A stretch of 56,646 bases of DNA, the filler included, from Platydemus manokwari (taxonomy: Eukaryota): assembly GCA_037951405.1 (NCBI GenBank). It is 5 parts of 5 records of this genome, joined end to end, with 100 filler letters (N's around TTAATTAATTAA, not from the genome) between each part and the next. Parts side by side here need not be neighbours in the genome. Positions count along the whole stretch, not along the records: positions 1 to 10,310 come from JBBMOY011146327.1; 4 more parts are not named here. One strand, 5' to 3'. Position 1 is the stretch's first letter; every line of letters starts with the position of its first letter. The notes under the pieces were generated by a model. That model searched no databases. It had not been told where the DNA came from and worked only from the letters and a program-made list of their open reading frames with translations. Below are positions 1-54,321 of this stretch, one piece after another. The position numbers and the translations under genes are program-made.

Positions 1-345
1 ATCAAATGTCAGCGCTGCGGAGTCGATACTCACGCCACATCTGAATGTACACTTCGGGGACTGGAATGTACCAAGTGTAACCGCAAAGGACATCTCGAGA
101 AAATCTGCAGATCAGCCGCTTTCACAAAGGAACGAGACGAGGTGAACACTCAAGGGAAAATTAAGTGCTTCACTTGTGGAAAATTTGGACACGTACAACG
201 ATCTTGCCCCAGCAATCAAGGGACCGACAAGCCAACAGCTGAAAAAGTCATGATGGCTCAAACTCTGCCCGCATATGAAGAGTGGACTCGGATGCAACAG
301 TTAGAACATGAATACTTGGAGGAAGTGAACCGCAAACTCACCTAA
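1..345 (+). CDS. gag: Gag nucleocapsid C-terminus with three CX2CX4HX4C zinc knuckles (5' partial)
   Basis: Frame +1 from base 1 reads IKCQRCGVDTHATSEC-TLRGLE-CTKCNRKGHLEKIC...IKCFTCGKFGHVQRSCP, ending at TAA 343-345. Confidence 0.85.
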   Translation: MKCQRCGVDTHATSECTLRGLECTKCNRKGHLEKICRSAAFTKERDEVNTQGKIKCFTCGKFGHVQRSCPSNQGTDKPTAEKVMMAQTLPAYEEWTRMQQLEHEYLEEVNRKLT

Positions 346-1660
346 AGCATCTACGCGAACGGTGTTTAGTCTATCAAGAGGCTATCCGAAAGGGGAACCA
401 TACCAACCCTCCCTGGATCATTCATACGCTCAGTCTAGTGGCACCAGCTCAAGCAGCTCCGCCACTTATCTGAAACTGATTTATACGTTAGAAGAAGCAC
501 GGGCTCTTCTAACAGTTAAAATAAATAATTATATGCAACTCACTCCGTCAAGAGAGCAAACAGAAACTTCTAATGAGTTACAAACTCCATGCATATCACC
601 GATAATCATGCGAGCCGAGAAAGCGTATACATGCAACGAGTATGAAGAAGAAGCCGACACTACCCAGGTAGTCGAAACGTGGGAAATCGAAGAAATTTCC
701 AAAGAAAAAGCAAATGAAGCTAAACCAAGTCTCACGCAAGTAATCACTGCTGAAAATGTGCTTGCAACAATTGAACTAACAGCTGAGGAACAATCAACTT
801 TGACTCAGTTCGCTCGCAATTTATTAAGAGAAGCTCAAAGGAATCCGCAAGACGAGCAGATGATCAAGAGTATCTTAAGTAATCACATTTACACCACTAT
901 ACCTACCGATGTATTGGCTGCCACCGCACCAATACTGGTTGAACTATTGGATAAGGGAGCCATTTACCGAAAGGAGGTACAGTTACTCCTACAGCGAAAT
1001 GGGCTAGCCATTCGGAGTCAACCGCAAGGAGCACCGATGCTCAATCTACACATTCGAACCAGTCATCACGGGAACTGGCTCAAGACATACTCTTGCTTCA
1101 CATACGTTCGCAAACTCAGACAGGACATTAGACAAGAAAAATCAATTACGGAACCATTCATCATCACAATTCAATCGAATCCGGTAGATGATGACGAATA
1201 TTTAGTTGACGTAGGCTGCTTACCAGACTTCGTTACAGTGGTAAAAGTACTGATAACGCCAGTGGAATCCAAACAATGGAGACGGATACCCACACTGTCC
1301 AAGGCAGAAATCGAGCCAGAAACGGGAAGAGTGGAGACACAGTTGCCAGTAGACTTAGATGTGGAACCACAGGAAACATCTCAATTCATGGACTACCAGC
1401 CAGAGTATGATCCACAACCATCTCCACCACCACCAGAACCGATCGTCGATGAAGTTATCGAAATAGTGGACCTCGATCCACCAGCTAATAAAATCAGTCA
1501 GAATCATGAGGAAATCATACAAGAGATAGAAAATCCTCCTCCAAAACCAGATCCACCAATTGTGCCAACGCAGGACACTAGTGGACCACCGCGGAAACGA
1601 AGAAACAGAGACACACATGCCCGCACCAACAGTCAGGTACAAGCACAGCTGCTACGATGA
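329..1660 (+). CDS. Retroelement accessory/polyprotein region of unknown function (acidic and Pro-rich segments, basic RKRR motif)
   Basis: Frame +2 is open from 329 to TGA 1658-1660 (432 aa from GTG 362). The same frame continues past the stop. No RT, RNase H or integrase motifs seen. Confidence 0.6.
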   Translation, partial: TANSPKASTRTVFSLSRGYPKGEPYQPSLDHSYAQSSGTSSSSSATYLKLIYTLEEARALLTVKINNYMQLTPSREQTETSNELQTPCISPIIMRAEKAYTCNEYEEEADTTQVVETWEIEEISKEKANEAKPSLTQVITAENVLATIELTAEEQSTLTQFARNLLREAQRNPQDEQMIKSILSNHIYTTIPTDVLAATAPILVELLDKGAIYRKEVQLLLQRNGLAIRSQPQGAPMLNLHIRTSHHGNWLKTYSCFTYVRKLRQDIRQEKSITEPFIITIQSNPVDDDEYLVDVGCLPDFVTVVKVLITPVESKQWRRIPTLSKAEIEPETGRVETQLPVDLDVEPQETSQFMDYQPEYDPQPSPPPPEPIVDEVIEIVDLDPPANKISQNHEEIIQEIENPPPKPDPPIVPTQDTSGPPRKRRNRDTHARTNSQVQAQLLR

Positions 1661-2113
1661 CTGGCGGATGATACAACCATAAACTCCAAACAAGACATCC
1701 AGCAATGTCTCTTGCGAATTGCTAAAGGGATTGATCCCTATAACCAACGCTTGACAGAAGTAACTACCGAGGGTTACGAAAAGCTACTCAATGACATAAG
1801 CAGATACATGCCTAGGATTCGACAGATCACACATGATCATCCCATCGTTGATTCAGAAAACGTGTTATGGGAAATTATCAAATACGGAGTTACTGCATCA
1901 AGAGCTAAGATCATATTGATCAATTTGGCCAACAAAATCATGATGGCGTCATACGGAGACACATTACACTACCAGGAAACATTGCAACAGACGGTCAAAT
2001 TAGCTCATCGAACCATAGGAAAATGGATTCAAACGCAAGGAGGATGGACTCAGTTCGGTTACACCGAGTCACTCACCGCAGAAGGACTAGGTAACCTCAA
2101 CAATAATGGATTA
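1661..2113 (+). CDS. Bcl-2-like domain
   Basis: BH1-like NVLWEIIKYGVTASR (cf. TVVEELFRDGVNWGR) and BH2 HRTIGKWIQTQGGWTQF (cf. NRHLHTWIQDNGGWDAF). The BH1 Arg to BH2 Trp spacing is 41 aa, close to Bcl-2, and a hydrophobic segment follows. Confidence 0.7.
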
Positions 2114-2368
2114 ATGAACACATTAATAAAAGTTATACTCATATGCAGCTTGATTGGAAAAACATCTATGCTCACCGCATATGATTGTTCAAACCCCAAG
2201 CTATCCACCATCTATTCGTTAGTTGATCTGTTCGAATGCCCAGCAGTCAATGTCAACAGTGTCAGACAGGGGCCACGAGAGTCCTTTTATGTGTACCAGG
2301 AATTAGAATTCGACCGAACTACAATCAGGGAATGTAGGGTCACGAAGGCCACATTTTTACTGATCTGA
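2114..2368 (+). CDS. env: Envelope glycoprotein N-terminus, chuvirus/Jingchuvirales-like (class III-type), truncated
   Basis: Signal-peptide-like MNTLIKVILICSLIGKTSMLT, then AYDC..YSLVDLFECP..VYQELEF..IRECRV. This matches the AYDC-x-SLxDVxxC-x-Q..F..xxxCxV pattern of chuvirus-derived glycoproteins found in invertebrate retroelements. Confidence 0.7.
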   Translation: MNTLIKVILICSLIGKTSMLTAYDCSNPKLSTIYSLVDLFECPAVNVNSVRQGPRESFYVYQELEFDRTTIRECRVTKATFLLI

Positions 2369-2389
2369 TAAAACTGACTATATTCATAA

Positions 2390-2590
2390 ATTTGTGCTTT
2401 TATTATTATTTTTAATATTATTATTATTATATTGTTATTATTATTATTATCGTTATTATTCTTTATGTAATAATTAATATTATTCTTATCTGATTATCAA
2501 TATTATTATCATTATCACATCTTATTATTATTATTAATACTATTATTATTACTCGAGTACCTTTTATTATTTATTTTGTTATTATTATTT
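2390..2590. repeat. Degenerate (ATT)n microsatellite
   Basis: Runs of ttattattatt. Confidence 0.85.
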
Positions 2591-4766
2591 TAAATTTGTT
2601 CCACTCTATCGTTTCCTTCGATTTACAATTTGAAAGAATACTCAAAATCATTATTATGTATTGAACTAACCGCAGCATTTTGAACCAACTAAAACAACCC
2701 AAAAAATAAATATAAATTGATATAACATTTTTTAAATAAGTTACAAATCCGAAAAATAACGTCAAAAATTATAAATATTTCATTAAAATACAAAAAACCA
2801 AATGTGTTTTAATATTATCTAAAATAGTATTTGTTTAACTACTTCAAAATAGTTAATTATCATTGCAACCTCATTGTCATGAAAAATTGTTCAGCAAATA
2901 TTTTTGGCAACTGCGTTATTCCCAAAAATAAATCATCCCAATTTGGTTTCATAATCGACTTTATTTGTGGGTTGTCACTATTTTTAGCATTGACGTGTAA
3001 GAGTTGCTAATAATAGCAACCTATTTGAGCAAATTAACTTAAATTGCACACAAAGCATTCCAAACAAGTATAAAAGCAGAGAGCCACAGGAAGACATTGC
3101 ACAATTACGACGTACTTGTATAACCTTATAAAAATTTAGCAATTCGAAGAAATTTAACTTTGAAGCTATTTTATTATATACCAATTTCAATCCGAAGAAT
3201 TTGAATAGTGACAAAACTTGATGTATTTAATGAGTATTATTAATTGTTTAATTAAATCTAGACCGTTGATAATTTTAACCTTGTGGTCCTTTAAAATCTA
3301 TAGGTTCAACTTCAAGGTCCCCACTTTCATTTTATCTTGACAGGCTTGCTCAAGCACCTAAGCTCCATGCCCTTTACTGTTTCTTGGCCACTATTCTGCT
3401 TCAACAATAGCGATCATCATCTTGTAATATTATAAAATTATTGTGTTTAGATAATTAATTATTGTCGATTAATTCATTTCATTTTGTTATATTTTTGCCT
3501 TTATTCATTATATTTTATTTGATTATCATACATATTTAAAAATTATTTTGCATTATGTTTTCCGAGCGTTTAAGCAACAACAACTTCTTACCTGACTGGA
3601 ATTCAGATAGGATGAAGATTTTTGGGTGAATATATTTAACTTTATCGTAATTCAAAATCCTTCTGATAATAATAACCGTATTAGTTTACATATTTTTACC
3701 AATTGAACATTCGTAATCTAAACTTATAATTGTTATAAACCGCCTCAGCAATCTTTAACAATTATACGCTATAACATACAGTAATTACTCAGTAAGGATA
3801 AAGATAATAAAACACAGAAAAGTTATTTTGTCATAATCAATAATAAAACACATAAAATAAAATATTAATTTGTCACAACTAATGTTGAGATGTGAGCTAT
3901 AATTAAACTTTGGATATTGAAACTCGCTTGGGTTTGGGAATTCCGTAAAAGAGTCTCAACGAATATTGGGTAATTGCTCAGGCTTGGAATTTGTGGTTAA
4001 ATAATATTGGAAGATTTTTGGAGTGATCGAATTTTTTGGAATTAAGATTTTAGAATGATTGGTTGTCGAGTAATGGAATTATCAGATTGTTTGGGACAAG
4101 GTATTTGATGTATTAATTGATTGAATTGGGATATTGTTGTTCTGAGTTTTGGGGTGTTTGATGTATTGGGTATTGATTAAGAATTTAGAGGTGTTCTGGA
4201 TTTATTGATTGATGATGTGTTTTAGATTATGTGTATCCACAACATTCACAGTCATCGGAGTTCTTTCCCAATATGCTACTCGAGTTTGTCTGTTTCTTAT
4301 TAACATTAACAAAATAATGAATTCTGGGTTATTAATATTAATATTAATAATTATAAATTCATTAAATATTTATTATTGGATTATAATATTGCATAGACTT
4401 GTCACTGATTTTAAGTTATTACAAAATTTCCTTTAATATTAATTAGGTATAATTATTAGGTATAATAATTCAAAGTTTTTAAACTAGATTTCATTAAAAG
4501 ATTTTTAATAAAATGTTTACTAGAATTAAAAAATAATTCTTTATTAAATTAAAAAAATTAATTTATTTTCTTGATTGATAAAATTATTTATATTCGCTAT
4601 AAAATTAATAAATTTGTTAAGATGAATGTACTACAGTGTTAAATCTTGAAACTATTTACTCAAATTGTTTAAATATATACTGGTCTTTGGTAACAAGGCT
4701 GTTGATATTTTAAATTTAAAAACACAAGCTTATACTTGAAATACATAAAATATATTACTTTAAAGG

Positions 4767-7700
4767 ATGGAAGCTGATAAGTTAGAATTGATTAAATGCC
4801 GTAATATTGAGGTAATGTGATACAATTTCAAAATTTAACTTTACTAATACATCAGTTGGAAGAGCAATTGAAATTATGCCAAAATGATTTAAAAAAGAAA
4901 GACGATCATATCAAAGCTTTATCTAGGTAAATTTCAACTTTAAATACGTTTATTGACAGAGTTATAAAGTATGGAAATAAAACGAAGCAGTTCTGACAGT
5001 TCGGATTCTATTCAAACGAAAGCCGAATTAGCATCGATACAGTTACAATTGAGTAATGTTATGCAGAAGGTATTGTTGACAATTTTCATTGGTGAAAACA
5101 ATATTTGATCACAATTTCATTGAAAGCTGGAAGAATATGAAATCAATATCAAAAGTAAAGCCGAACAAGTTCAAGAATTGCAAGCTTCGAATCGCAATCT
5201 TAATGAACAATTGGATAAATTTATTGCCAAAGAATCGGAGCTTCAAGCTAGTTTAACTGCTGCTGAGAAATTATCTAATGAAATGAGCTGTGCCAATTCA
5301 AGAAGCGAGTTGGTAATTGTTTCCTTGCAAAAAGAATTAACGGAATTCACTGAGAAAATTATCGAACTGGAACAGCAAATAAAGTAATCGACAAATCGGA
5401 TTAGTTGTTATTTGACGAATATCTTGACTGAATTCAGAGATCTCACCATCACGAAGAGTTCGTCCGATCATTCTCACGAAATGTTGACAGTGAAAATCAA
5501 TGAATTCTACTCCAATCTCACGATGCATTTGAACGTTGAATCGGATTCCGAACCGAATACGGTATTTGAAAAGGTGCAACAGTTGGACAAAACCGTCTCG
5601 TTTATTTGATTTTGCGATATTTTTCAGGTTAAACATTTGACCAGCGAAAACAATCAATTGAAAGGTGAGATCGATAATTTGAAAACAACGGCCAAAGAAC
5701 GAGAGGAGAAATTTTTGGAAAGTCGAGAATCAATGAGAAAAATGATGCAAAACATCGATAAAGACAAAGGAAATCTTGAAGATTATATTCGAATGAAACG
5801 CGAAATGACATTCGTAAGGCAACATGGCCAGGAGAGATTTGATTGGTTAATGAATATTTGGTTTTTTGTAGGAAATCGAGAAGATTAATGCGGAGAAGAA
5901 ATCGATGGAAATGAAGAGTTCCGAACTGGAAAACCAGTTAATCGACACGAAAAAGATTCTCGAAGAAACCAAGAAAATTCTCGAGGACAAAGAAGCCCAA
6001 TTGGCTAAGATTTATTTGGAGAAACGCGAGTCTAATTTCAGCATGGTAAATGTTAGTAGGGAACTCGATGGTTTCAAAGAATCAATAGCAGGCCTTCTAG
6101 GAAACCCTTTGAATCGATGTTCACCGACGGAAGAAGCCATTAAAGAACGATTAAAGAGTCTCATTCAGGAAGCGAAAGAAAAGGATAATGTGAGATGGAT
6201 AGATTGTTAGATTAAATAATCTCATTGTCTTTGGGCTGTAGTCGATATCCGTTCTCAATGTAAAATTGAAAAATGTTTCCGAACAGTATGAGAAACAATA
6301 TGAGAACTCAAAGGAAACTGGTTTGAAAGCACGTCGAGTGGAATTGGAATATCTGGATTTAACAGAACGCATTCGTCAGTTGGAAAAGGAGCTGTCTTCG
6401 AGAGATGTTACTCGAGACTCATTAAGAGCAGAAAAGGAAAAGGTTTCCAATCTCAATTTTGTATTCGATTACTTATATTTGTTTGTCGATTTAGTTCTAC
6501 CATTTTCTAAGACGACTGGCAACGACATTTAAAATGGATCCGTACACTCACGAACAAGATTTTTCCTTGATTTTCGATGGTATTCTCGGTAAATGTTGAG
6601 AGATAGGTAGCTGAGTAGAATGATTTTTCACAAATTTATTTTCAGATCGAGCATCTCATCTGGTTCACAGCGAAAATGAAAAGAATATTGATACTAGTCA
6701 AACGATATCCTCTTTAAAGAAGCGACTTCGAGATGTGAAAGACCAATTGCATAGCCGGGATTTGCATTTGGAAATGATGAGAAAGAAATTGGCGAACCAA
6801 GACGACAAGATTCGAGAAGCTTATGAAGAAGTGGATCAGAAACGGGATTTAGTGGACAGTGAAGAAACTTTGAAGGTGAAACTGTCCAAGATACAGAAAA
6901 AAGTTGAACAGCTGAGAAACGAAAATAAAGTTTTGAAAGCCGAGCTCTTTGAATGTTCGGATATCAAGGTAAAAATACTGTTTATTGATTTCTCTATTTG
7001 AGATTATTATTAATATTTTATATTTGTTATGATTTTGGGGGGGGTATGCTAATATGGTGCTGGATTTCCTAACCAAGTAATAAGGGTGATTGTAGTTAAG
7101 TAACAGTGGCTCTCGTTTAGAATACATCAATTTCATTTCCTTTACAATGATAATGATTATAATTATTGTTGGTTATTGAAAATATGTTTGATATAAACAT
7201 TTATTTATTAAATTACATGTGCTGGTTAACTCATTTCAATGCAAATATCAATAAGTAACACGTCATCTGTCTTCAACTGGCTTTATCTAGTTGCGACATT
7301 TATAAACGAGAATTTGTCCATGCTCAATTTCTAAATGATGTTATCATTTCCAAGGATCAAATTAGAGTTATCTATTCATACCAAGTTTTTATTATGTCGT
7401 CGCGTAGCAGTGTATTTTGTTTCAAATCGAAATTTTTGTTCTAAATTGATTCTGATTGATCGGTGATCCACTTTGTATGATTGTGTAGACATGCGTGTAT
7501 GTAAAATATCGAGACATGGGTTCAAAGATGATGAAAATTATTGTTATGTGGTACTATTATAATTATAATTTGGAGTTAAATTTATAAATTAATCACCAAG
7601 TTATTCTACCAAATTGAATTATTTCTATTTGAAATATTTATAGCTATTAACTTCCTCCAAATTCTAATTATCAATATATAAGTTACCTGCAAGACTTTAA

Positions 7701-9778: not shown

Positions 9779-10310
9779 CTGGAATCTGTTTATTCTGTCA
9801 AAATTTAAAGACAATTTTCAAATCTTTATAACATTGTTTCTGTGTTGATGACACTGATGAGCACTGATATTATTTATTATTTTTATTATCATGATCATGT
9901 AGAGTTATAAGAAATATGTTGATTTCGTATTTTTCATTGTAAAATTATTAAAAAAAATTCAATACTAAACTTGAATATTTTTCAGAACCTTTAGATGAAA
10001 GGAAAATTTTAAATTTAATAAACTATCAAATAAAAGCAATATGTAAAACAAACGATAATAAGGACGAAGAAAAAAATATTGTAAGAAATGCGAAAATAAA
10101 GAGTTATCTAGCTCTCCGTATACTTATTTTATGATGTATATCCCTTTACGAGCGCACTGTCGTTCAAACTTATATGGCTTTAAAATAATTTTACAGTTGA
10201 TGCAATATAGATAAGAATAAACGAAAAATATTTGAAATTAATAACTATAAATTTAATCTGACTCCAATTAAATAATTAACGAATGCAAATAAAAATATAT
10301 AACTGTTATT

Positions 10311-11558: not shown

Positions 11559-12471
11559 TCATATGCACGTGTAATCCATTTGTTCAATAGGTAAACAAAT
11601 GTTATTAATTACTCTCCAAACACCGAAATCTTTATATATCCCAATGCAAAATCCAAATAGCCGCAGTAATTTAGTAACATTAGTTGGTTTATTGATTTGA
11701 TTATTTCTTCCTGCAACGATAAATCTCCAATTGTTTGCCAGTGCCATTTCCATTAACAGATCAATATCAAAAATTGATGATGATACAATTCCGAACACAA
11801 GATCTTTAGTATCAATGTAATCATTAAAATTTTCAATCGAATGATAACAATTGTAGTAACTGGTGCATTTTCCATCAGTCAAATGAGTCACCATATTATT
11901 GGCCAAATATTGAATATCTGACCGGTAGTTATTAAGACTCAACACAAAATCCATAGAACACCACAGAATTAATCGGCTTGATTTGTATTTTCCTAACCCA
12001 GAATGAGTATATCTTTTATCTGGAAGATAAGCAAGATGTTCTACTTGATTATATTTTGTGATACTGTATTGGGTTGTCGTGGTGGGATTTGAAGCCACTG
12101 GTATATTTTTTAATATTTGATATCTTGCTGTTGTTGGCGTAACGAACTGTAAAGATAAAGCTTCAATCAATAATCACACTTCAAGAATATAATCTCACTT
12201 TCGATCCATGATTATCATTGAAAAATGCCTTCACATATTTGCACATGTTTCTTGTTTCACAAATTCCATCGAATGTGTAAAAATTACATCGTAACTTTAC
12301 CTCATCAAAATGAAATACCTCACAATTAACGGTAATGCATTGAATGACACAATTGTAAATATCTCTTGCATCGGTTGTAGTTGTTGGTTCATATACACAA
12401 ACCATTTTACCAATGAATCTCACTTGGCATTGCATAAATGTTAAACTGGAAATGATTAGAATGATTCTCAT
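11559..12471 (-). CDS. Secreted protein with N-terminal PAN/apple-like Cys domain; exons 12471-12199 and 12146-11559 (about 286 aa)
   Basis: Signal peptide MRIILIISSLTFMQC and CVIQCITVNCEVFHFDEVKLRCNFY (PAN-like). A 52-nt GTGAGA...TTTACAG intron joins the two ORFs in phase 0. Confidence 0.7.
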
Positions 12472-13760: not shown

Positions 13761-14767
13761 ACTGTTTTAGTAAACAGAAACTGATTGCGAACTATTAAGC
13801 AGTCGATTTGTTCTCTTTATTAACAAATATTATCAAATAAAATAGATAAATATGTGTGAAAATATATTGAGAATCTTACGAAATTGTTTGCATATCAGTC
13901 ATTACAACTATATCAATTTACTCTGCGAATTAAATTATTTGGCATTACCAAGAGGCTATCCAATTATTTAATAGTATTTCTCCGATTTCTGAATGAATTT
14001 TCTTTCTCAACATATTGTTTCCTATCAACTAATTTTCCATATTTTATGTATTATTCGTTGCATAGCTTTATTATTTTATTATATTTTCCATTACCATGAA
14101 AAGAACTAAAATTGCTTATTCAATTCATCTTTCTCCGTTGAGAAAATTAAAAATTTTCTCGGTGTTTAAATAAAAGAAATAAGGGTGTTAGTTAAGAGTT
14201 TAAATATTTAAATTGATAGGTCTGATTGGAATTCTATTTTTAAGAAGCACTTTTGTTCTACAAACAAATAAAAAATGAATAGTTAAATAACGATTCTAAA
14301 CTTTTCTATTTGAAGTGCTAATTAAATTAACAGCATAATCAGAAAGAGATAATTCTTATTGCTAAACCTATTTAATCTATTTTTCGTTCAGATCTAATTC
14401 AAGATATTAAACAATATTTGAAGTCTTTCAATTCCTCAGTTGCATAACTAAGGATTTAATGCATTAGTAATGAAGGCTCATTGGAAAGAGGAATTCAAAT
14501 GAACCATTCAATATTGACCAATGTAAAAAACATAAAAATCAATAAGATTGTGAAATCAAATTTGAAATCGCAACAGATCCAATAGGTACAAGTCAAAGCC
14601 TTCAAATTAGTGAAGTGAATAATTACATTTATTTCAGTGATTATGATCGATAACTTTCTTCACAATGTCATTGGTTAATATTATACAAATAATAATTCAT
14701 TTTTATTTCACTCAAATATTATTAAAAATCAAAAAATAATAATTCTTAAGTCATTTATAAGGAAAAC

Positions 14768-15679
14768 ATGACAGTTGATAAGTTATTGTTGTTTGATATT
14801 TTTCAGACAATAATTCTCGTTATCGGATTAATTTCCAATGGTTGGAGTGCAGTAATTGTTATCAAATTTAAAATATTTCCTTCACGATTTACGAAATATG
14901 TTATTCAAAACCAATTTATATTTGACGCGATTGTATGTTTTCTGTCACTTATTATGATGTGGACAAAAAATAATATTTATAATATTAACAGCACGGTCAG
15001 TATAATCATTTGCAAATTGTGGAAATCTCAAGGATTGTTTTGGATGTTTTACTCATTAAGTTGTCAAAACTTATTATTTACAGCAATCGATCGATATGTA
15101 GCAGTAATGCATCCGATAAAATACCGATTGAAAACTACGTATATGCTGATTGGATATGCAGTATTGTTAATTACAAATAGCCTTCAACCAGTAATTTTTG
15201 GGTACTTTATTATGACAATTCAAAACAGTACTTGTATTTTTGATGATAAGCAGTTACTATATTATCAAATATCAGCAGGTAGCTATGCTATCCTTGATTA
15301 TTACATTCCTGTTCTTGTGTTTGTCTTTTGTTACTTGAAAATATTTCTTAAATTAAAGTCTATGAGAGAGGTTTCGCAAAACAGTGAACATTTTCGTAAA
15401 TCGACAATCATGTATACGATTTCAACCTTTATTAATGTTGTCTTATTTACAATTCTATTGATGTTGGACAACATTGTAATGGTTATGTTTGCATTTACAG
15501 GAATTGCATTTCAAGAAATTGAAAGTGTTCAGTTGACATCTTTATTTCTTGTGAGTATCAACAGTTGCATCAATCCATTTGTTTATTTAGTTGGCATGAA
15601 AACGTTTCGCAAGCATTTTACATTCGGAATTTGTAGACACACTGGAATTGATCCTCAGTCTAGCTCTGGTAATACATGA
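14768..15679 (+). CDS. Intronless rhodopsin-family (class A) orphan GPCR
   Basis: 303 aa with seven hydrophobic segments, TM1 GLISN, TM3 C...AIDRY, TM5 YYIP..FCY and TM7 NSCINPFVY. Confidence 0.92.
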   Translation: MTVDKLLLFDIFQTIILVIGLISNGWSAVIVIKFKIFPSRFTKYVIQNQFIFDAIVCFLSLIMMWTKNNIYNINSTVSIIICKLWKSQGLFWMFYSLSCQNLLFTAIDRYVAVMHPIKYRLKTTYMLIGYAVLLITNSLQPVIFGYFIMTIQNSTCIFDDKQLLYYQISAGSYAILDYYIPVLVFVFCYLKIFLKLKSMREVSQNSEHFRKSTIMYTISTFINVVLFTILLMLDNIVMVMFAFTGIAFQEIESVQLTSLFLVSINSCINPFVYLVGMKTFRKHFTFGICRHTGIDPQSSSGNT

Positions 15680-20099: not shown

Positions 20100-20952
20100 T
20101 AAAATTATTATTAAGAAAATATGATTTGTTTTAGTGAATTAAAATAAATATTATGAAGTCAATTTCTCAGAAGGGAAATTATTGATTAATATCTGGTAAT
20201 ATTGATTAAATGTAGGGGTTGACTACGCATGTCAACTCGGTGTCAGGAAATTTTGCTGCAAGTGTTGCTAGCAAAATGCGACTATAAAAGTGGTTGTAAT
20301 CAGCAGTCGATTACCAGAATTTTAGAAGAAAGAAAGTTTACAGAAACAAGAATTTCTGACAGAAGAAATCGATTGTAACCAAATTTGAGTGCAAAAGGAA
20401 AACTTTATCAGAAATTGAAACCATAATTGTTCATAGAAAAGAATCTTTGAACAACCAGAATAAGAAGATTTTCAGTTATTACAAAAGGAAACAGATCGTC
20501 CAGTCGAGAAATAATTTTACCAAGTCGCAAGGGAGCCGGCATTCAGAGCAGGTTATTTATTTTGTTCATATAAAGTATTTATAGAATATTCGTGGACAGT
20601 GTTCCAGAATATTGGTAACAGATAAAATTAGTATCAATAAATTGAGTGGTATTCGTGGACATTATTTCCCGAATATCGTTATTTGTACAAAGATATTGTA
20701 TTGAGCGTCCGTAACCTGTTTTCGCACGCTGGTAATTGCAGTAACGATCAGGAGTACTCCATCGGCCAGTAATCCAGATTCGTGAACCTATTATATTTGA
20801 CAGAACTTTAATAGGAGTTAGGCCTTTGGTGATATAATCTAAAGCTATATATATATAGTTATTTGAATATAACTTAGTGTGCAACTTTGTTTTGAATTTG
20901 GAGTCAGGTTATTAACGAGAACTGTTGTATTCTACACCCGGTAGACCCAACA
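20100..20952 (+). mobile_element. LTR-like repeat, copy 1 (left end near gap)
   Basis: Colinear with the reverse complement of 29265-30090. Has TATAAAAG at about 20283, an internal duplicated TATTCGTGGACA unit, and homology ending at ...GACCCAACA. Confidence 0.65.
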
Positions 20953-21914: not shown

Positions 21915-22170
21915 AATGTGCTCGTTTATGGTGCCAACCGGACTCCAGATGATTAGCTGCGTTCATTTGAAGTAGGTAAGGTTAAATATAAATAGTAATA
22001 ATATAATAAATAACAATAACACAAATGTAATAAATATAATTATGAATCAAATACACTCTACAAAATTAGATAACAAATGTATTATTAGGATTGTGTAAAA
22101 ACAGAACTGGCGAAGTGTGGCTCACTTAACCAGAGGGCAAGACTCACGATACGGGTGAACCGTACAATTA
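21915..22170 (+). repeat. Dispersed repeat family, inverted copy at 41455-41712
   Basis: GTGCCAACCGGACTCCAGATGATT...GGGCAAGACTCACGATACGGGTGAACCGTACAAT matches the reverse complement at 41461-41710. Confidence 0.8.
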
Positions 22171-22870
22171 GTGAAAACTATTAAAAAAGTAGGAGCAAAC
22201 GAAGATATTTTTTAGTTAATACCGAATCTATCGACACGGTATGAAAATAACATTCATTAATTCGGTTTGTACCTAATTGATTAGTCGTTTGGCTTATAGA
22301 AGAGATTTTCTTGCTTGTTTCGTCGCTGATTTCTCTGACAGTAGCTGTTTTCAGTTAACTTTTTGGCTTGCTGAGATTCCATATTTAGACATTTTTGGTC
22401 ATGTTTCTATTTTAAGAATTACGTCATTGATGTTTTAGGGATTTTTTGTTATTTTATTTCATGTGGGTGTTGAGTACATTTGTGGGCGTAACATGTCGTT
22501 GTGTGACTCATTATGGATTCGGATCCTAACATATGTATCCAATATATTACATAATTATTTATGCACTTATATGGCGTTAAAATATAATTACATAATTCCT
22601 GGCATCTTTCAATAATTTCTTTGTCACTTCTTTTGTAAAATAGTTCCGAAATTTCGGATATCGTTCCATTTGCTTTTAATGGTAAAAAAGGGGTCCTCGC
22701 TAATTTTCAAAAAATTGCATTTTGATCAGTTTTTTAAATAATTAATTTTTATTGGATTTTAAAATTCCTGTGTATATATTAGTTGATTATAAATAAATAA
22801 AATTTTTCTCAAGTACTTAAATAAAAAATTCAAAATGTTTTTAATGAATATAATTAAATAAACTATATGA

Positions 22871-23258: not shown

Positions 23259-24120
23259 GTAGAAAAATATCTGAGGACTCTACTGCTTAAATGCAAATTT
23301 TCTTTCAAATAATTTTTGATTTTTTAATTAATAAAGGTTTTCTTGTTTAAGCCAATTCATGTTACAATTGGGAAACGTGAATTAAATGAAAACCCATGGT
23401 GCTGAAACGTTCAAAGCACCTTGAATTGTTTCGTTAACCGATATATGCAGAACGATATATGCAGATCAATATTAACAAATCAATATAACGTCGGAGAAAA
23501 TAAACCGTTTTACTTTTAATTTAAATATGGTAGTGTTTGTAATTAAAGTGTCCATATCAAATTGTAATCGACCAATCAATTCATTGTTAATTTATTTTAA
23601 CAAAATTATTCCTTTTATTTATAGTTCAAGGTCAACCAAAAGCAAGTAGTGACCATATAAAGTCAGTTTCGATTTTTACAATCATTGTTTAGTATGTACA
23701 ACAGTTTCATCTAACAATTTTTTCATCGAAGAAATTCCAATACATTTTCGCAACAAGTTTCATAATTGTGGAGGTGAAATTTTAAAAATTATCGGTAAGT
23801 TTTCAATATATTTTGACTATTTTCATAAATAATTGATAATGTTCTAATAAAGATAACATTCTGTTTCTATTTTTGTCAAACCTATTAATGATATTCGAGT
23901 TGGGAAGCGTTAGTTCACTGTTTAGTTTTATTTGGGATTGTTTTTCACTGAGTTCTGTTATATGTAAATTTAGTTGGTTACTGGTACAGGAGAGTTTCCG
24001 TGTCAAAATGTGCTTATTCTTTGACACACCATGAATAGATTGTATCAAGATCTGTTGATATGAATTAATAAATATGGGTTAAAATAATTCCCAATTCATA
24101 GTTGCAGATCCAAATCACAA

Positions 24121-27109
24121 ATGGCTTACTACAAATCGACGAAAGACGTTTATGAAAAATTCAATTTGATCGCGGATCCCAGAACCGAAACATGGTTTTT
24201 AGTCAAAGATTGGTGGCCTTCAATATGCATATCAATGAGTTACTTGATCTTTGTCAAGTTATTTTCCCGTTGGATGAAAGATCGACCGGTATTTAATACA
24301 CCGAAACTTTTGATCGCTTACAACATTTCAATGGTTCTCCTATCAACATATATTACTGCAACGTTTCTGTTTTATGGTTTGAAAACCGGTTTGAATTTTT
24401 CATGTTGGCCAGTAAGCAAAAAAATCAATAGCTACACAATGGGTCTAGCAAATGCGTTTTGGTGGTTTTATTTCAGTAAGATCATTGAATTGTTGGACAC
24501 AATGTTCTTCATTACGAGAAAGAAATACAATTTAATCACGGCTCTACATTTGTATCACCACGCTGTAATGCCCGCTCTTACTTGGCTGGGTATCAAATTT
24601 GCACCGGGTGAGTTTTTTGATCTTTGTAAATAAATTTTTTATTCGGATATCATTATATAATTCTTAGACAATATCTTTATTTGTTTCCCATAATGATTCC
24701 TATCTTACATACTCTGATAAATCTTAATTTTATAAATTTATGGAATATTTTCTCGTTACCTAGGAAACAAAAATCTTTGATAAGTATAATATTTGATAAT
24801 TAACAGTTCAAATTGACTCGGACAAGTTATTTCAAATTTTCGTATTAACCAATTCCACTGCCCTGGTAGCAGCGCATCAACACAAAGAAGTGAGTCATCT
24901 TCAAAATGTCGATTACGATTGGTCGAAAAATCGCTCATGCAGTCAAGATGAACTTTTTTAGTCTTGTTTCGACAAAATGCAATTTACCCCCATTTTCTGA
25001 CGATTTTAAGATTGATTTTTTGAAAAAACTAAGAAATGTAAATTTAAATAACAAAACAAAAGACAATTGATGATTATCAGGAATTTCTATTCCAAAATTT
25101 AATAGTCTCTCCATAAGGTTCAAAAGTTCATTCAAACCATATTTGAAAAATTACGATCGACCGATTTCGATTAATTCACAAATTGTTTCCGCATTATCAT
25201 CGAATAATATTCATAAACACTCACCAATACCAATTAGTGTGTTGTGGTGAACGTTTTAAATGAAAATATCAAAATTTGTAAACTTTTGGTAACCACGGTG
25301 ATTGTTACTCTCACGACAAATTTTACCACCAATCAATTGAGTACCAGTTTTATAGAATTAATGAAAAGAAAAAAATCTTATGTAAAAATGCACTTATTTG
25401 ACCAGTTTTCATCGATCAATACATTGATTCCAACATAATGAAATGTTGCTCAGTTACATAGACATTGAACTACTAATTACCATTTCTTAGAAACCGAAAA
25501 ATTCCGATATTGATATTGACTCATATTATGCTATACCATTGTGCCAGAAAAACTATAGATATACACACACATAATAGCGCACATGGATACATATGCAGAA
25601 ATATGAGTCATATTCGTATCGAGATGACATTTACATCGCGGTTATCATTCAAAAATTTCTGAAAACAAAATAATTTGAAATCAAACAACTGTGAAGATCA
25701 AAATAAAATCATTGAATCTCTAATTATTATAATATTATTATTATTAATATTATTATTTATTATTATTAATATTATTATTGTTATTATAAATATTATTTAT
25801 TATTAGTATTGCTATTTATGATTCTTATTATTATTTNNNNNNNNNNNNNNNNNNNNNNNNNNNNNNNNNNNNNNNNNNNNNNNNNNNNNNNNNNNNNNNN
25901 NNNNNNNNNNNNNNNNNNNNNNNNNNNNNNNNNNNNNNNNNNNNNNNNNNNNNNNNNNNNNNNNNNNNNNNNNNNNAAAGTACTATGTTAAATCCTTAAC
26001 TGATTAATTCACATAAAAATCGTCACACAATAATATATCAATTTATTGTTAACAGTCATCCATTATTGATAAATATTTCGCTGTAATTCATTCGGATCAA
26101 TTAGTACGATTAATGTTGCATTCAATGACTTCATCAATTATCGATTGACAGTACAAAAGACGATTTATTGAACTCCATAAAACGATATATTTGTGATTGT
26201 CATTGTCAATGTCTAAAAGGTCTCTTAAATCAATATGATAATGATTCTGGGTTTGTGATGATTCGATAAATAATTACAGTATTTCCATGACCAATTGCCA
26301 ACTAATGTCGTTGGTTTCTTGATTTATTATGTGTTCATTATGTGTAAAAGTAAATAAATCGATAATAACCAATCAATACTTTATTTTTTAAGAGATTAAT
26401 TTCATAATCTCTAATATCATACAATGTTTGGATATAACCATAATGTCTTAGAGAATAAAATATAATTTTTCTCCTCATTTATAACATCTCACGGAAATAT
26501 GATGGCACTGTTTCGGTATTCCTGTAGGATTTGAATGAAAAATAATCCGATATATTTAAGTGTTGATATTTTCAATCTCACGAGTAAATGTGCCACTGTG
26601 AGATGGTTAAAATGTGGTGAATGATTCTTCCAATCACTGATATTTATTGATATATTATGAATTCATAGTTCGATTCTGGTTTGATGAGTTTGAAAAATAC
26701 TTGACAGCATTGATAATATCCAAAAATTCATTAATAACTGTAATACCCGTATTACATAACCGGTGTTGCATAATAAGATTGATTAATCCATAATATAGGG
26801 GGCTTTGGCACAATCACTTTCATGCTGAATTCATTCGTTCATATATTCATGTACACCTACTATGGACTCGCAGCTGCTGGTCCAAAGTTCAGGAAATATC
26901 TCTTCTGGAAACAATACATGACCATGCTTCAAATATCACAATTCGTTTTCAATATTATTCATTGTGTTTATTTCCTACGAATTGATTGTCCATATCCGAA
27001 GATATTGGTCGGTGCTGTTCTGTCGAATTGCGTCATATTTTTTATTCTATTCTCACATTTCTATCACACCTCATACAATGCCCAGCCAATCTATGACAAG
27101 AAAGAATAA
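24121..27109 (+). CDS. ELOVL: Very-long-chain fatty acid elongase (ELO family); exons 24121-24607 and 26799-27109
   Basis: ADPRTETW, KIIELLDTMFFITRKK, LHLYHH histidine box, NSFVHIFMYTYYGL, WKQYMTMLQ and LFSHFY. A phase-1 GT-AG intron restores APGG. The paralog cannot be assigned. Confidence 0.95.
25837..25976. other. Assembly gap adjacent to (ATT)n tract
   Basis: Run of N within the ELOVL intron. Confidence 0.95.
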
Positions 27110-29264: not shown

Positions 29265-30090
29265 TGTCGGGTCTAACGAGAGTAGAGCGCAACAAATCCT
29301 CGTTAATTACCTGACTCCAAAATCAAAACAAAGTTGCACACTAAGTTATATTTATAAAACAGTATATACAACTTTCAATTGAGAAAACAAGGGTATAGCC
29401 CTTGATAAAGTTCTGTCTAGTTTATTCAAATACGGAACTGGTCCGCTTCACCAAACTGAATTACTGACAGAGAAACTACTCCTAGCCGTTACTACGATTA
29501 CCGCGTGCGTAAACGCGTTACGGACGCTAAACACAATTACTTTGTACAAATACCGATATTCGGGAAGCACTGTCCACGAATATCACACAATAGATTCTAC
29601 TTTCACCTACTATTACCAATATTCGGGAACACTGTCCACGAATATTCTATAAATACAATATACGAACAAAGATATTTATCTGTTCTGATTGGCCGCGCCT
29701 TTGCGACTTGATTCAATTATTCCTGAAATTATACTTGCCATGATTATATTCTGGTTGTTCACAGATTCTTCTTAATGAACAGTTCTGCATTCTTTTTTCT
29801 GATAACGCTTGCTTATGTGCTCTAATTCAAATCTGTTGACTGCTTTCTGACTAAGTCCTGGTTCTTGCTAAAAATTCTGGTTTGTCTGAAATTATGGCAA
29901 TCGTCCACTGATAGCCATCACTTTTATAGTTGTATTTTGTTAACAGCAATTGCAGCAAAATTTCCTGCGTAGTAAACTCCTACATTTAGATTAATATAAC
30001 CCTATATTAATCGATAATTTCCTTTCTGAGAAATTGGCTTCTATTAATTGTTTTTATACAGTAAAACAAATCATAATTTTCTAATAATAA
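29265..30090 (-). mobile_element. LTR-like repeat, copy 2 (inverted relative to copy 1; runs into gap)
   Basis: Starts TGTCGGGTCTA directly after an (AAT)n tract and shares blocks such as CCTGACTCCAAA.TCAAAACAAAGTTGCACACTAAGTT with copy 1. Confidence 0.65.
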
Positions 30091-33700: not shown

Positions 33701-36700
33701 AAGAAATTTTGTAATAACAAATATTGATGTTTTCGTATTTTATGTTGTTTGAAATACTTTTTGACACTGATATATTTAGTCCAGATAGAAATTCATCTAT
33801 AAATAATCTACTGTCAGTTAATGAATGTCCAATTAAAACGGTCCAGGTTTTGTCGACATGTCATTCACTCGTTCAAATGGATCATGACGTTATTGGAGAT
33901 CCTCTTGAAAAAGCTATTCTAGACTCAGTTAATTGGACTTTATCCAAGGGAGATGTGGTTTTTCCTAGTTCCGCTTATAAAACACATCCATTGAAAATCT
34001 ATTATCGATTCCATTTTAGCAGTTCTTTACAAAGAATGTCAGTTATAGCTGGTCATTCGAATTTGGGATCAATTGATATCAATTATATTGCTACTGTCAA
34101 AGGATCACCCGAAATAATGAAAGATATGTATATAGATGCGCCCAAAGATTATGATCAAATATATCTCGATTTGTCTCGACGTGGCGCTCGAGTTCTTGCT
34201 TTGGGCCAGAAGGATTTTGGAATATTGTCTCATCAAGCTGTATGAAATTATGAAACTTTTCCATTGATAATTGTTCTATTAGGTACGTGATTTGAAAAGA
34301 AATGATGTTGAAAAGGACTTGAATTTCTGTGGGTTCGTTATAATTTCTTGTCCTTTGAAGAAAGATACTAAGCATGTTATCAAAGAAATTTTACAATCAA
34401 GTCATCATGTAACAATGATCACGGGTGACAACCCTCTGACAGCTTGTCATATAAGTAGAGAATTAAAATTCTTACGTAAAGATCATACTCTAGTGTTAAC
34501 CAAACCAAATAGTTTTAGTATGTATATTAGTATAATTTAATAAATAATATATAATCATCACAAATATATAGGTGATGATTGGCATTGGCAGTCAATTGAT
34601 AATACCATTATAATGAATTGGAAACTGATGAAGCCTATGAAGGAATTAACTGCTAAATTTGATTTTTGTTTAACTGGAGAGGGAATTCGGTTTTTAGAAA
34701 GAAATGATTTAGTTTTTCTTCGAAAAATGCTTCCGATTGTTAGAGTTTATGCACGCGTTGCTCCAAAACAAAAGGAACAAATAGTTGTTGGACTTAAAGA
34801 ATTGGGATATGTGACTTTAATGTGTGGTGATGGAACAAATGATGTTGGCGCCTTAAAACAGGCTCATGTGGGTATGGTTTCGTTATTTGATTTTGTTGAT
34901 TTTGCTCATTTTAACAGAGATTATTTTGATTCTTATTAACACGTTGACTGCCGTGGGAGTCACCGGTGACCGGCACTCGACTTGCCTACAGCGCCGTGGG
35001 AGTCACCGGTGACCGGCATCGTATAATGAAAAATTCACGTTGGCGCCTTGGGCAAAACATGGGAAATGCTCCTGACAGTCAACGTGTTAACAAAATAAAT
35101 ATGATTTTATATATTGTCGATTCTATCATTGGTTTCAGAGAACATTTTTTAATTTTATATCGTTCGTTATAAATAAGTTTCTATTTCGAATCCAGTACAG
35201 GAAGAGATAAAGGGATGCTTATCAGATATTTATCTGTGAATCATTTTTAATCGCAAATCATTTTATTATTATGATACATTCAATTTTTATTTTATAATTT
35301 TATATAATTTTGTCCTACAAAAATCAAAACTTTTCTTTTGATTAAAGCTGATCGAATTTTTTCGATATTTATTCTTTTTAATTCATTGAAACCATGTCTT
35401 ATAGTTTTTGATTCTACATTATACATGTGCCTTACCAGATAATTATAATATTTGCTGTATAGCATTTTAAAGATACCATTGAAAATTTCTATGTTCAATC
35501 CAATATTATTGAATTGAAGTTTTTATTAAATTAAAATTGATGAACAATTTTAAATATAAACATTTTCGTCCAGGAGTTGCTCTATTAGCTAATGCTCCAG
35601 ATCCAGTCATACAGTCCATTAATGCTTCTGAAAATTTAACTAAAGATGGAGACATTAATGATGAATCAAAATCCAAACGACCAAATAGCCATATCAGTAT
35701 GAGAGCTTCGAAATTGTCTAATCGTATTAAATCACCAACCGCTACAAACCCTGTAAATAAACAAATTGTAAATTCATCAAATACTAATCAAAAATTGAAC
35801 TCTCTTTTGAATGAAATGGAATCTGAAGACAAAGCTCAAATAGTGCGATTAGGTGATGCTAGTATTGCAGCACCATTTACCGTGAAAATGTCATCTATTA
35901 GAGGAGGTAATTATATTTATTTATTTTTATTTATCATTAAATACATTTTACTTAGTGAGTCATATTATCAAACAAGGCCGTTGTACTCTTGTTACCACTT
36001 TGCAAATGTTTAAGATTTTGGCCTTGAATGCACTGATATTGGCTTACAGTCAATCGGTATTATATTTGGACGGTGTTAAATTTTCTGATGCTCAAGCCAC
36101 CATTCAAGCACTTTTATTGGCTGGATGCTTTTTATTTATATCAAGAAGCAAAGTATTATTCACAAATTAATTGTCTCTACTAAAACTGACATTTCTAGCC
36201 TTTAAAAGAACTATCAAAACAAAGGCCTTTAGCAAACATTTTCAACGTCTACACATTATTCACTGTTTTGATGCAGTTCAGTGTGCATTTTTATTCTTTA
36301 TATGTATTATCCAATGCTGCCCACCAATACATGCCAATCAAGTAGAAATTTTATTTGCATTTTAACAAATCAAATACTATAAAATTTAGAATTTTTTAGT
36401 GTTAAATTATTTATTTTTAAACATTTGATTTTATTTTGGGATTGTTTTATTGAAACAATTTTCACTTATAAATTACAAATTTATTTAAATATATACTAAA
36501 ATAATGTTTATAATGATAAAAATGAGTTATTATTGTTCAAGAAAAAAACAATTTCTACAATAAACGTAATAATTCAATCAATCCTGTTCTAATTATAGAC
36601 CAAATGATTCTATTGCATCAAATTCTACAATTAGAAATCTGACTGCAACTTCCTCATTAAATTCTACCAACTCAAGCAATATTACAAGCACTGATGTCGA

Positions 36701-40100: not shown

Positions 40101-41454
40101 TCTTCCAGTAAAATATCGCGCATATACAGGAATATTGGGCTTCTGCACCAGATGATCTACCACAGTACGTCAAATTGAAATTGTGGTCAGCGAAATTTTG
40201 ATTGCGAAAAATAATGGCCGTGTTGATTGTGATTGCTGCCTTAAATAGGCAGTGTGAATCACTCGCAGATATTCTTTTGAGATTAAATCTAATGCCAGTG
40301 AATTTATTCACTGGTGAGAGAAAATCTCTCTGAATATATTGTTAAATATAAAAATGGCAAACAATTATAAATAATCTATTAATCACAATTATACAAATTT
40401 ACCTCAAAACAATCAAATAAAATGTTNNNNNNNNNNNNNNNNNNNNNNNNNNNNNNNNNNNNNNNNNNNNTTAATTAATTAANNNNNNNNNNNNNNNNNN
40501 NNNNNNNNNNNNNNNNNNNNNNNNNNATTTCATTAAATAAATATTTTAAAAAATGTTTTTGTTTTTTTAAAAAAAAGCCGGAATCATACTAATACACCTA
40601 ATAGATTCTAAAATATTCTTCACAGCATGTTTATCTCGTTTTTTTCTTTGTAATTAAGTTCGTAGTCGCAATAACGACTAACAAATAGTAACGATCAGGA
40701 AATTCTCCATCTTCTTTTTCAATTCGAGTTCGTCGAAGCCCAAAAATTTGAGAGCGATCTTCTCCATCATCAACTACTTATATAATCTTTTCCCCGTGGA
40801 TAATATGAGTAATCCATTTGATAATATTTTTTCTATTATTGGCTGATTATAATTATTGATTTATATATTTCTCCTAAAATGAATAGTTCGTTTGATTTCA
40901 ACAACAGCTTTAATCGAAGTATTATTTATATTGCTTTTTGTTCAGCAGTCTGGCTCACCAAAATTGTTGGGTTATCAATCAATATTTTTAGATCCGAATC
41001 CACCCACAATAAGTCACAGACAACATATTACGCCCACAAACATAATAATAATAATTAAAATAAATCAAATCCTATAAATATAATTTAATAATTACAAAAA
41101 TAGATTAGAAACTAAAAATAGAATTTATTAATTCCAAAAATAGATCAGAAATAAAAATAGGATTTTAAAATCCCATAAATAGAAAAATCATGATTTGTCA
41201 CAGTTATAACGAAAAGTAGTATAAAAGCAGCCGGAGAAACAGAACAAATCGCCAAAAAAGTTAACTAAGATTTTTAACTAACAGAAAAAGTTAACTAACA
41301 GAAAACTACGAGCAACGAGAAAAGTTACTTAGTAACGAGACAAGCATAGGAATCTCCGTAACAAGCCAACCGATTTAAGCAGCGAGGTACAAAGTGACTT
41401 ATTGATTGATTTTCATACCGTGTCTTCGTTTTTCTCCCATTTTTTAATAGTTTT

Positions 41455-41712
41455 TATTTCATTGTACGGTTCACCCATATCATGAATCTTGCCCTGTGGA
41501 TAAGCAAACCACGTCTCACCAGTTCTTTGTTTACACAATTTTAATCATTCAATTGTTATTTAATTTGTAAATTGAATTGATTCATAATTATATTTTACTA
41601 TCGCTGCGTTATTGTTATTTATTGTCTTATTATTATTTATATTTAAATTCATCTACTTCTAACGAACGCAGCCAATCATTTGGAGTCTGGTTGGCACAAC
41701 GAACGAGCACAT
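41455..41712 (-). repeat. Dispersed repeat family, inverted copy of 21915-22170
   Basis: Reverse-complement similarity as described for the first copy. Confidence 0.8.
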
Positions 41713-53396: not shown

Positions 53397-54321
53397 ATGC
53401 AATTTCATTATCCAAATTTAAATTATCCCAGCCAATATTATTATTCAACTAATGGGCCAGTTATAAATAATAATGTATACCCTCCTTACTTTAATTTTGG
53501 ATCAAATACGATGAATCACAACAGCTACAATGTTCCAAATATGCAAAACTTCTTAGAACAAGCTGCACCAAGAAAACCAGTTGAAATACCTAAAGTTAAT
53601 CAGAGTACTGAAATGCCCACTCCAATTTTGCAGTGAATTATGTTTTCTTTTAATGAATTAAACTAAAAATAATATCATCTTAGAAATATTGTTTGTACTG
53701 TAAACTTGGGTTGTTTGCTCGATTTGAAACAGATCTCTCTTAAGGCGAGGAATTCTGAATATAACCCAAAAAGATTTTCAGCAGTTACCATGAGAATTAG
53801 AGTTCCAAGAACCACTGCATTAATATTTTCATCTGGAAAAGTTGTGTGTACCGGAGCAAAAAGTGAAGATGAAGCTAAACAAGCGTCGAGAAAATTTGCC
53901 AGAATTATTCAAAAATTAGGATTTAATGTTTCGTTTAAAGGATTCCAAATACAAAACATTGTTGCATCTTGTGACATTAGATTTCCAATTAGCTTAGAGG
54001 CATTCAATAAGGAACATGGGGAATTTACAACGTAATATTTTTAACTACGATTATCTTCAATATTTAATTATGTTAGCTATGAACCAGAAACATTTCCAGG
54101 TCTGGTATATCGTTTGTTAGATACTAAAGTGATTATTCTTGTTTTCACATCTGGGAAGGTTGTTTTAACAGGTAATTTTAAGACAAATAAAGTATTGTTA
54201 TTTTCCAATAGGGGCCAAATTTAAAAACCAGATCGACGAAGCTTTCAAGAATATTTATCCAATATTATTCAGATACAGAAAAATACTTAAAGATGCCAAA
54301 AATGAGAGTTCAAAAAATTAA
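53397..54321 (+). CDS. TBP: TATA-box binding protein family member (divergent TBP-like); exons 53397-53632, 53684-54031, 54077-54171, 54212-54321
   Basis: [75 protein letters not shown] and [14 protein letters not shown]. The 40-51 nt introns keep the frame. Confidence 0.93.

Follow-up and report, generated by a model that had tools for sequence, protein, structure and literature searches.

A probable internal Env signal peptide behind a Bcl-2-like domain in Burro-type Gag-Env-Pol polyproteins

Introduction

A hydrophobic helix between a Bcl-2-like domain and the envelope glycoprotein (Env) of a retrotransposon in Platydemus manokwari is likely the internal signal peptide of this Env, as judged from its sequence context. 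We consider it probable that this internal signal peptide is real and conserved in a Gag-Env-Pol polyprotein, and that it tethers the Bcl-2-like module to the endoplasmic reticulum (ER) at least briefly. A sequence-only reading had proposed two roles for the helix, Bcl-2 tail anchor and Env signal peptide. Its role as signal peptide is retained here, but the helix is the Env's own and looks alike in relatives without a Bcl-2-like domain.

The window analysed is a stretch of 56,646 nucleotides, and its positions 1-2355 are likely a broken copy of a Burro-type giant retrotransposon. Burro (GYPSM1) elements of planarians are giant gypsy-like LTR retrotransposons (Grohme 2018, Jurka 2007, described in PMC6431247). 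They encode, in this order, Gag, zinc knuckles, a Ubi/SUMO-like domain, a BCL2-like domain and an in-frame Env between gag and pol, and decayed fragments are known from one planarian (PMC6431247). For Burro elements, BCL2 beside an in-frame Env has been published before (PMC6431247). In its account of Burro, PMC6431247 makes no mention of the helix, of a signal peptide or of an anchor; annotation of the helix may exist in Grohme 2018 and Jurka 2007. A literature search found no paper on this helix. That one helix may be shared as anchor and signal is a textbook principle for Flaviviridae. Since both the domain order and this principle are established, what is gained here is a mechanism for a known element, in a dead copy.

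Results

Layout of the element

The window element shares with Burro the order of Gag zinc knuckles, BCL2-like domain and in-frame mononegavirus-like Env, with a putative ubiquitin/SUMO-like module between zinc knuckles and BCL2-like domain (PMC6431247). Its features are as follows.

1..345, + strand: C-terminal part of Gag containing zinc knuckles of the CCHC type (Pfam zf-CCHC, which passes its cut-off with E 7.8e-9); frame already open at the window start
329..1660, + strand: next polyprotein segment in a different frame, 443 codons, with acidic spacer, helical part, ubiquitin-like module and Pro-rich linker
~824-1243, + strand: predicted ubiquitin-like module (weak PF00240 match in P0004, E 0.031; pattern by eye; Burro annotation in PMC6431247)
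1658..1660, + strand: in-frame stop codon (sequence; comparison with contigs and relatives)
1661..2062, + strand: Bcl-2-like domain (family profile, predicted model, Pfam match below cut-off)
1886-1903, + strand: BH1-equivalent GVTASR, with NWGR degenerate
2024-2047, + strand: BH2-like WIQTQGGW (sequence)
2048..2110, + strand: polar linker from BH2 to the helix (sequence)
2111..2170, + strand: predicted internal Env signal peptide, h-region 2123-2155, c-region 2156-2170
2171..2355, + strand: N-terminal ~60 residues of an Env ectodomain of class III (gB-like, Monjiviricetes-type), with a Pfam match that falls short of its cut-off (PF24664, E 1.7e-4)
2356..2600, no strand: truncation point and AT-rich microsatellite-like host flank (GC shift; repeats D3-D7)

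The GC content is 0.443 for positions 1-2355 and 0.278 beyond. An AT skew of 0.27 over positions 1-2000 was also seen, the element being A-rich on the + strand and GC-richer than the host. Positions ~824-1243 match residues 405-547 of polyprotein P0005 in a pairwise BLASTP comparison (E 1e-8), while ORF 329-1657 did not match P0004 by BLASTP (best E 0.28) and a Pfam scan of segment 329-1660 gave no domain match, ubiquitin/SUMO-like domains included. The stop-to-stop ORF 1661-2368 (235 codons) contains weak Pfam matches to Bcl-2 (E 0.049) and to the Monjiviricetes fusion protein (E 1.7e-4), both under their cut-offs. By decay and truncation, the gag-env-pol retrotransposon is reduced in the window to a 2.36-kb piece. 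It differs from Burro in this, in the absence of a MATH match from the window, and in that neither LTRs nor pol are seen there (PMC6431247). The copy stops at ~2355, upstream of any pol; an Env between gag and pol is seen in the relatives instead.

The helix ahead of Env

The sequence-only reading had placed the helix about 20 aa after BH2 and immediately ahead of AYDC, and both placements are correct. LMNTLIKVILICSLIGKTSMLT occupies 2111-2176 (+ strand) inside ORF 1661-2368, AYDC follows directly at 2177-2188, and the last Trp of WIQTQGGW lies 22 residues ahead of LMNTLIKVILICSLIGKTSMLT and 26 ahead of the hydrophobic core. No other stretch of the ORF is as hydrophobic as this core, LIKVILICSLI (2123-2155), whose Kyte-Doolittle mean across its 11 residues is 2.85 and which contains an internal Lys. 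In a 19-residue frame the hydropathy reaches 1.45 when confined to the part ahead of the family cut site, and 1.71 is attained only by spanning the predicted cut.

Conservation across copies, which had been named as a check on that reading, is borne out: 24 of 25 relatives found by motif have an 11-residue hydrophobic peak of at least 2.0 ahead of the xYDC motif, and the sole exception is a short N-terminal piece. The hydrophobic core is therefore not a product of chance.

For the cut site we used a simplified (-3,-1) rule, small residues at -3 and -1, and not SignalP; the residue sets are those of von Heijne's rule. The set comprised 26 of the 28 matches described below; the motif did not find P0013 and P0017, and the cluster mate P0029, a near-duplicate of P0021, was omitted. 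The rule fits two residues before AYDC, the equivalent of LTAYDC, in 23/26 relatives, compared with 16/26 after the conserved Ala and 2-8/26 at eight further offsets. Cleavage before LTAYDC, as had been proposed, is thus predicted for the family but not straightforwardly for this copy, in which the family site (2170/2171) reads T-S-M and Met at -1 fails the rule. P0002 likewise has Met at -1 of the family site. Sites that fit in this copy are GKT/S (2164/2165), LTA/Y (2179/2180) and LIG/K (2158/2159), the nearest of them 2-3 residues from the family site. Because of Met at -1, the window copy and P0002 would need a neighbouring site or slow cleavage.

Six relatives without a Bcl-2-like domain (143-891 residues upstream; at most 2.1 bits) all carry the helix, among them P0005 and P0028, which are unbroken from the Gag region. 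Between helices with and without Bcl-2 upstream, six features gave Mann-Whitney p values of 0.11-0.95 (n = 9 versus 6, low power). Because the Bcl-2-less relatives keep the same helix, it appears to belong to Env, with the Bcl-2-like domain optional.

Gag-Env-Pol relatives

A full HMMER scan found 28 proteins at E <=0.001, 26 of which match the fusion family at E <=0.1, full-length ones with E 1e-63 to 1e-95. A Bcl-2-like domain and Env share one frame in eight relatives (P0002, P0003, P0004, P0008, P0010, P0016 and P0022 among them). P0004 joins in one frame a Gag-like start, a zinc knuckle, a weak ubiquitin match (E 0.031), a weak Bcl-2 match and Env; P0028 runs in one frame from a Gag-like start to Env; P0002 has the Bcl-2-like domain, Env and proteases; and P0005 extends from zinc knuckles through Env to proteases. 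In P0023 and P0029, Env and proteases are followed by RT, RNase H and integrase, and P0029 adds ankyrin, 4,844 aa in all. Env lies in frame between gag and pol in P0002, P0005, P0023, P0028 and P0029. Relatives that run into PR, RT, RNase H and IN, with ankyrin repeats and up to 4,844 aa, are a further likeness to Burro (PMC6431247).

The helix is 780-1340 residues deep in P0004, P0005 and P0010. At the end of Env, one main hydrophobic segment (19-residue Kyte-Doolittle 1.8-2.5) was found in 8/8 long relatives scanned that reach this point, three of which have a weaker second peak (1.3-1.5).

Further pairs of a signal-like helix and a transmembrane (TM) segment were observed in P0029 (~2088-2147, ~4361-4729) and P0023 (~2486-2740), placed after the ankyrin region and, C-terminally, after integrase. 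They suggest, as predicted features, that there are more membrane or luminal products than Env; no description of them was found in the Burro and errantivirus literature examined. Tandem aspartic-protease domains occur in P0002, P0005, P0021, P0023 and P0029, with seven stretches in P0029, some after integrase. In P0013 and P0017, N-terminal pieces of Env are fused to FAD-oxidase and MRP-L47 domains, and these are probably chimeric gene models.

The Bcl-2-like domain

That a Bcl-2-like domain lies upstream of the helix, as the sequence-only reading had it, is supported by profile, predicted model and a profile built without the window. Family profile A1 gave 145 matches to PDB sequences at E <=1, and the best 60 of these 145 were all Bcl-xL, A1/BFL-1 or BAX (E 1e-4 to 7e-4). 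Of 433 window frames, the window-free profile placed the frame of the domain at the top with E 3e-6, ahead of a runner-up at 0.009. The predicted domain model (pLDDT 68, pTM 0.58) was matched by Foldseek to the Bcl-2 family in 42 of the 42 matches listed, the best with E 2e-3 and none at or below 1e-3. In VIA, 23 of the best 25 rows were Bcl-2 family with KsBcl-2 on top (Z 7.4, rmsd 3.5, 106 aligned), a Z below the caution level of 8, and Ndc10 was tied at 6.9. Predicted without alignment, the fold was poor (pLDDT 40.6). Pfam PF00452 scored 14.6 bits for the window domain and 23.6 for the best relative, and the gathering score of 31.4 was not reached. A single-sequence search of PDB sequences returned one unrelated match (E 0.27), a word-index search of longer proteins none among 771 candidates and, with the profile, just two own members among 7,994, and the ESM Atlas gave no match from 0.9. 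Support for a Bcl-2 helical fold of the domain, which comes from modelling and sequence profiles, is moderate but consistent.

The domain alignment comprised the window and the seven relatives that show more than the BH2 end; P0001, with the BH2 end only, was left out, and cellular Bcl-2 proteins were not included. Identity within it is 10-17%. Gly and Trp of BH2 are invariant in 8/8 aligned sequences, and WIQTQGGW aligns with the BH2 of Bcl-xL. The canonical BH1 motif NWGR is absent: GVTASR is found here versus GVNWGR in Bcl-xL, and Trp and Gly are missing in 7/7 covering rows. Many viral Bcl-2 proteins also have no NWGR. Its loss therefore lowers the case for a canonical member of the family but not that for a protein which works like one. 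Bcl-xL, A1, Mcl-1, BHRF1 and KsBcl-2 share with the domain the predicted helical fold, BH2 and a hydrophobic segment ~25 residues after BH2; they differ by 5-21% identity in the fold matches and by the NWGR lost here. Unlike Bcl-xL-type proteins, the helix is short here, is followed by an ectodomain and has no basic flanks.

An independent start of the domain was rejected, the first Met (1808) lying 49 residues into it. The Env tree (10-11 rows; window, P0001, P0003 and P0022 omitted as too short) shows two changes of the Bcl-2 label; it is mostly unresolved and does not tell gain and loss of the domain apart. From its distribution, the Bcl-2-like domain would be an optional passenger, and upstream modules of any kind would get their tether from the signal of Env.

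Is the helix kept as a tail anchor?

The Env's internal signal peptide could also stay on a captured Bcl-2-like protein as a permanent tail anchor, giving a retrotransposon vBcl-2 made by polyprotein processing and acting at the ER as a modulator of apoptosis or autophagy, one-for-one with Env. We regard this lasting dual use as possible but doubtful. The fold support from profile and predicted model speaks for it, as does the invariance of Gly and Trp in BH2 despite such low identity. The domain stands directly ahead of the helix in 9/9 sequences that show it, and no other hydrophobic tail is present between BH2 and Env. The distance from BH2 to the core is 25-59 residues across these nine sequences, 25-33 in five and 40-59 in four. 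A spacing of 25-33 residues is close to that of cellular Bcl-2 tails. Such a spacing would suit a kept anchor role, and we count it, together with Met at -1 here and in P0002, against our main reading of a tether that may be brief. Burro elements also bear BIR domains (PMC6431247), which fits with lasting dual use.

Against it stand the replaced NWGR of BH1, linkers of up to 59 residues, and the helix itself, which is short (core start and cut are 16 residues apart in this copy, with a range of 16-26), contains the internal Lys, has the low 19-residue hydropathy given above and is no different from helices without Bcl-2 upstream. The domain is moreover missing from six relatives. The mitochondrial signal of Bcl-xL is a C-terminal TM with at least two basic residues on each side (PMC2172731), an arrangement found in 0/9 sequences here (the window has 0 and 1); a mitochondrial tail anchor was thus rejected, and the mitochondrial localisation considered with the sequence-only reading is unlikely.

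Uncleaved signal-anchor

An improbable alternative is a signal-anchor role of the helix with slow cleavage or none, by which the Bcl-2-like domain (and Gag) would stay joined to Env, as in the foamy virus leader peptide or in delayed flavivirus C-prM. Met at -1 in this copy and P0002 would agree with it, gB-type ectodomains lie between a signal peptide and a TM or between two TMs (PMC13524379), and flavivirus capsid and envelope are coupled through delayed cleavage (PMC7601889). These points are outweighed by the canonical site at one fixed offset in 23/26 relatives and by the three alternative sites that fit in this copy. Furthermore, the RxK/RR furin-type motif is absent within 60 residues in 9/9, unlike in the foamy virus leader peptide (LP; PMC3705266). 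A furin-cut leader was rejected on the absence of this motif near the junction.

Separate Env translation

Even less likely, we judge, is that a spliced or subgenomic RNA, translated from ATG 2114, is the main source of Env, with the helix as an ordinary N-terminal signal and the Bcl-2-like domain unanchored. Spliced env mRNAs are usual in gypsy elements and retroviruses. ATG 2114 sits exactly at the n-region, AG dinucleotides with 8/14 upstream pyrimidines occur at 2068-2084, and a Met lies 20-45 residues ahead of AYDC in 7 of the 15 relatives whose upstream sequence is long. Yet such a Met is lacking in 8/15, including three of the seven Bcl-2-bearing ones, the context of ATG 2114 is weak (T at -3, A at +4), and so are the acceptor-like sites. 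The frame is open from BH2 to the helix in 9/9, so that translation of the genomic RNA must traverse the helix. In addition to the polyprotein, a spliced Env RNA may exist. A splice-donor-like TAG/GTAACCT was noted at 2088-2097, between BH2 and the helix; it may be due to chance and, if used, would give the Bcl-2-like domain an alternative C-terminus.

Condition of this copy

ORF 1661-2368 begins directly after the in-frame stop at 1658-1660, the frame changes near 340 between the Gag frame and the next polyprotein segment, and the Env match gives out after ~60 residues, near 2355, the remainder being absent from this copy. Because of the frame change, the stop and the cut-off Env, the window copy is a dead fragment that is unable to make Env or the polyprotein.

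Run X1 contigs (426 records) were compared with the window. The element region is covered by many divergent contigs, and one flank contig is an exact match to the window over 637 bases. At stop 1658, none of the 11 contigs listed there matches the window; the contigs vary in length around the frame change, and four of them continue beyond 2355 with different sequence. The matching region of P0004 and P0010 is read through without a stop before the Bcl-2-like domain. Among the differences listed (40 of 225), those at 2125 and 2137 lie inside the helix and are both silent third-position changes; 8/13 in ORF 1661 and 13/23 in ORF 329 fall on first or second codon positions.

By these comparisons, stop and frame change are to be taken as breaks private to this copy or as assembly errors, both being considered because rare variants are lost from contigs and the window comes from a draft assembly, and not as features of the family. 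In a draft assembly single-base errors are possible; runs of N with TTAATTAATTAA linkers were noted near 10310, 19820, 30090 and 40425. We give next to no credence to programmed recoding at the stop and near 340 as a means of setting the ratio of Bcl-2-Env to Gag: an in-frame stop does lie just ahead of the Bcl-2-like domain, but read-through at 1658 was rejected on the contig and relative comparisons above, and Burro ORF1 is a single frame of 4,873 aa (PMC6431247).

Discussion

Topology and mechanism

In our preferred reading of an internal Env signal peptide, signal peptidase would cut at or near LTAYDC, and Env would be delivered into the ER lumen. A signal with an ectodomain behind it is expected to enter the ER co-translationally. 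Because the relatives carry the helix inside one polyprotein, cleavage would leave a cytosol-facing product of Gag, ubiquitin-like and Bcl-2-like modules, and because there is no stop ahead of the helix, this product would end in the helix after the luminal cut and stay ER-tethered by it until cut further. The single predicted Env TM segment would return the protease-RT-integrase part to the cytosol. Optionally, the linker may be trimmed or the helix cleaved by signal-peptide peptidase (SPP), like flavivirus anchor C and HCV core. The tether would then be a by-product of the signal of Env. The sequence-only reading had a membrane-anchored, cytosolic Bcl-2-like protein and a luminal Env made together. 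The predicted topology and the frame shared in eight relatives agree with this, but the anchored product begins with Gag, and a free-standing Bcl-2-like protein would therefore need an upstream cut, presumably by the aspartic protease of the element, to release the module.

Comparison with known systems

As working models, flavivirus anchor C and HCV core come closer to this predicted arrangement than do the leaders of Rem or foamy viruses. Flavivirus anchor C/prM and HCV core/E1 share with our element that one helix is a C-terminal anchor and the signal of the next glycoprotein (PMC7601889; PMC5402940). They differ in that the anchored protein is a capsid, freed by removal of anchor C, also the prM signal, through NS2B-NS3 or by release of HCV core from the E1 signal through SPP (PMC7601889), whereas here Gag, ubiquitin-like and Bcl-2-like modules are anchored. 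The parallel with MMTV Rem and foamy LP that had been drawn does not hold well. The sequence ahead of the Env ectodomain has a cytosolic-side job of its own there too, but these are N-terminal leaders of a separate Env ORF (PMC3705266), and in our element an internal signal lies well inside a Gag-Env-Pol polyprotein. Furin, and not signal peptidase, processes foamy LP, and the Rem peptide is released as an RNA-export factor (PMC3705266).

GAG-ENV-POL errantiviruses with an HSV/gB-type Env are described from flatworms, nematodes and bryozoans, and they share an Env before pol, a class III fusogen and a signal peptide or TM ahead of the ectodomain (PMC13524379). The flatworm C1a Env row in the supplement of PMC13524379 has, by eye, the same YVYQE...RxxVREC pattern as here. 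Bcl-2 and apoptosis are absent from the main text of PMC13524379, and Bcl annotation is absent from the seven supplement files searched.

Implications

If the lasting dual use is true, each fusogenic Env at the ER would be accompanied by one membrane-anchored modulator of apoptosis or autophagy. Our preferred reading provides a concrete, testable topology for giant Burro-type Gag-Env-Pol polyproteins, in which the internal signal makes Env luminal, the TM makes Pol cytosolic and the upstream part, any Bcl-2-like domain included, starts ER-tethered. With a lasting tether and an active domain, a death inhibitor like those of herpesviruses and poxviruses would be tied one-for-one to a retrotransposon fusogen. 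This would bear on the persistence of such elements in stem-cell-dependent hosts.

The rest of the window

Outside the element, the window consists of AT-rich animal DNA that contains host genes of ordinary kinds. Among these, a GPCR of the rhodopsin family with a single exon (14750-15679), an ELO elongase exon (24088-24633) and a TBP exon (53673-54035) were observed, and, by eye, P5-type ATPase exons (33718-36013) and a long coiled-coil gene (~4770-7000). An open frame of 204 aa at 11559-12173 (- strand) has no Pfam match. Two dispersed repeat pairs in opposite orientation are 75-90% alike, ~20140-20920 with ~29300-30060 and ~21915-22200 with ~41430-41715.
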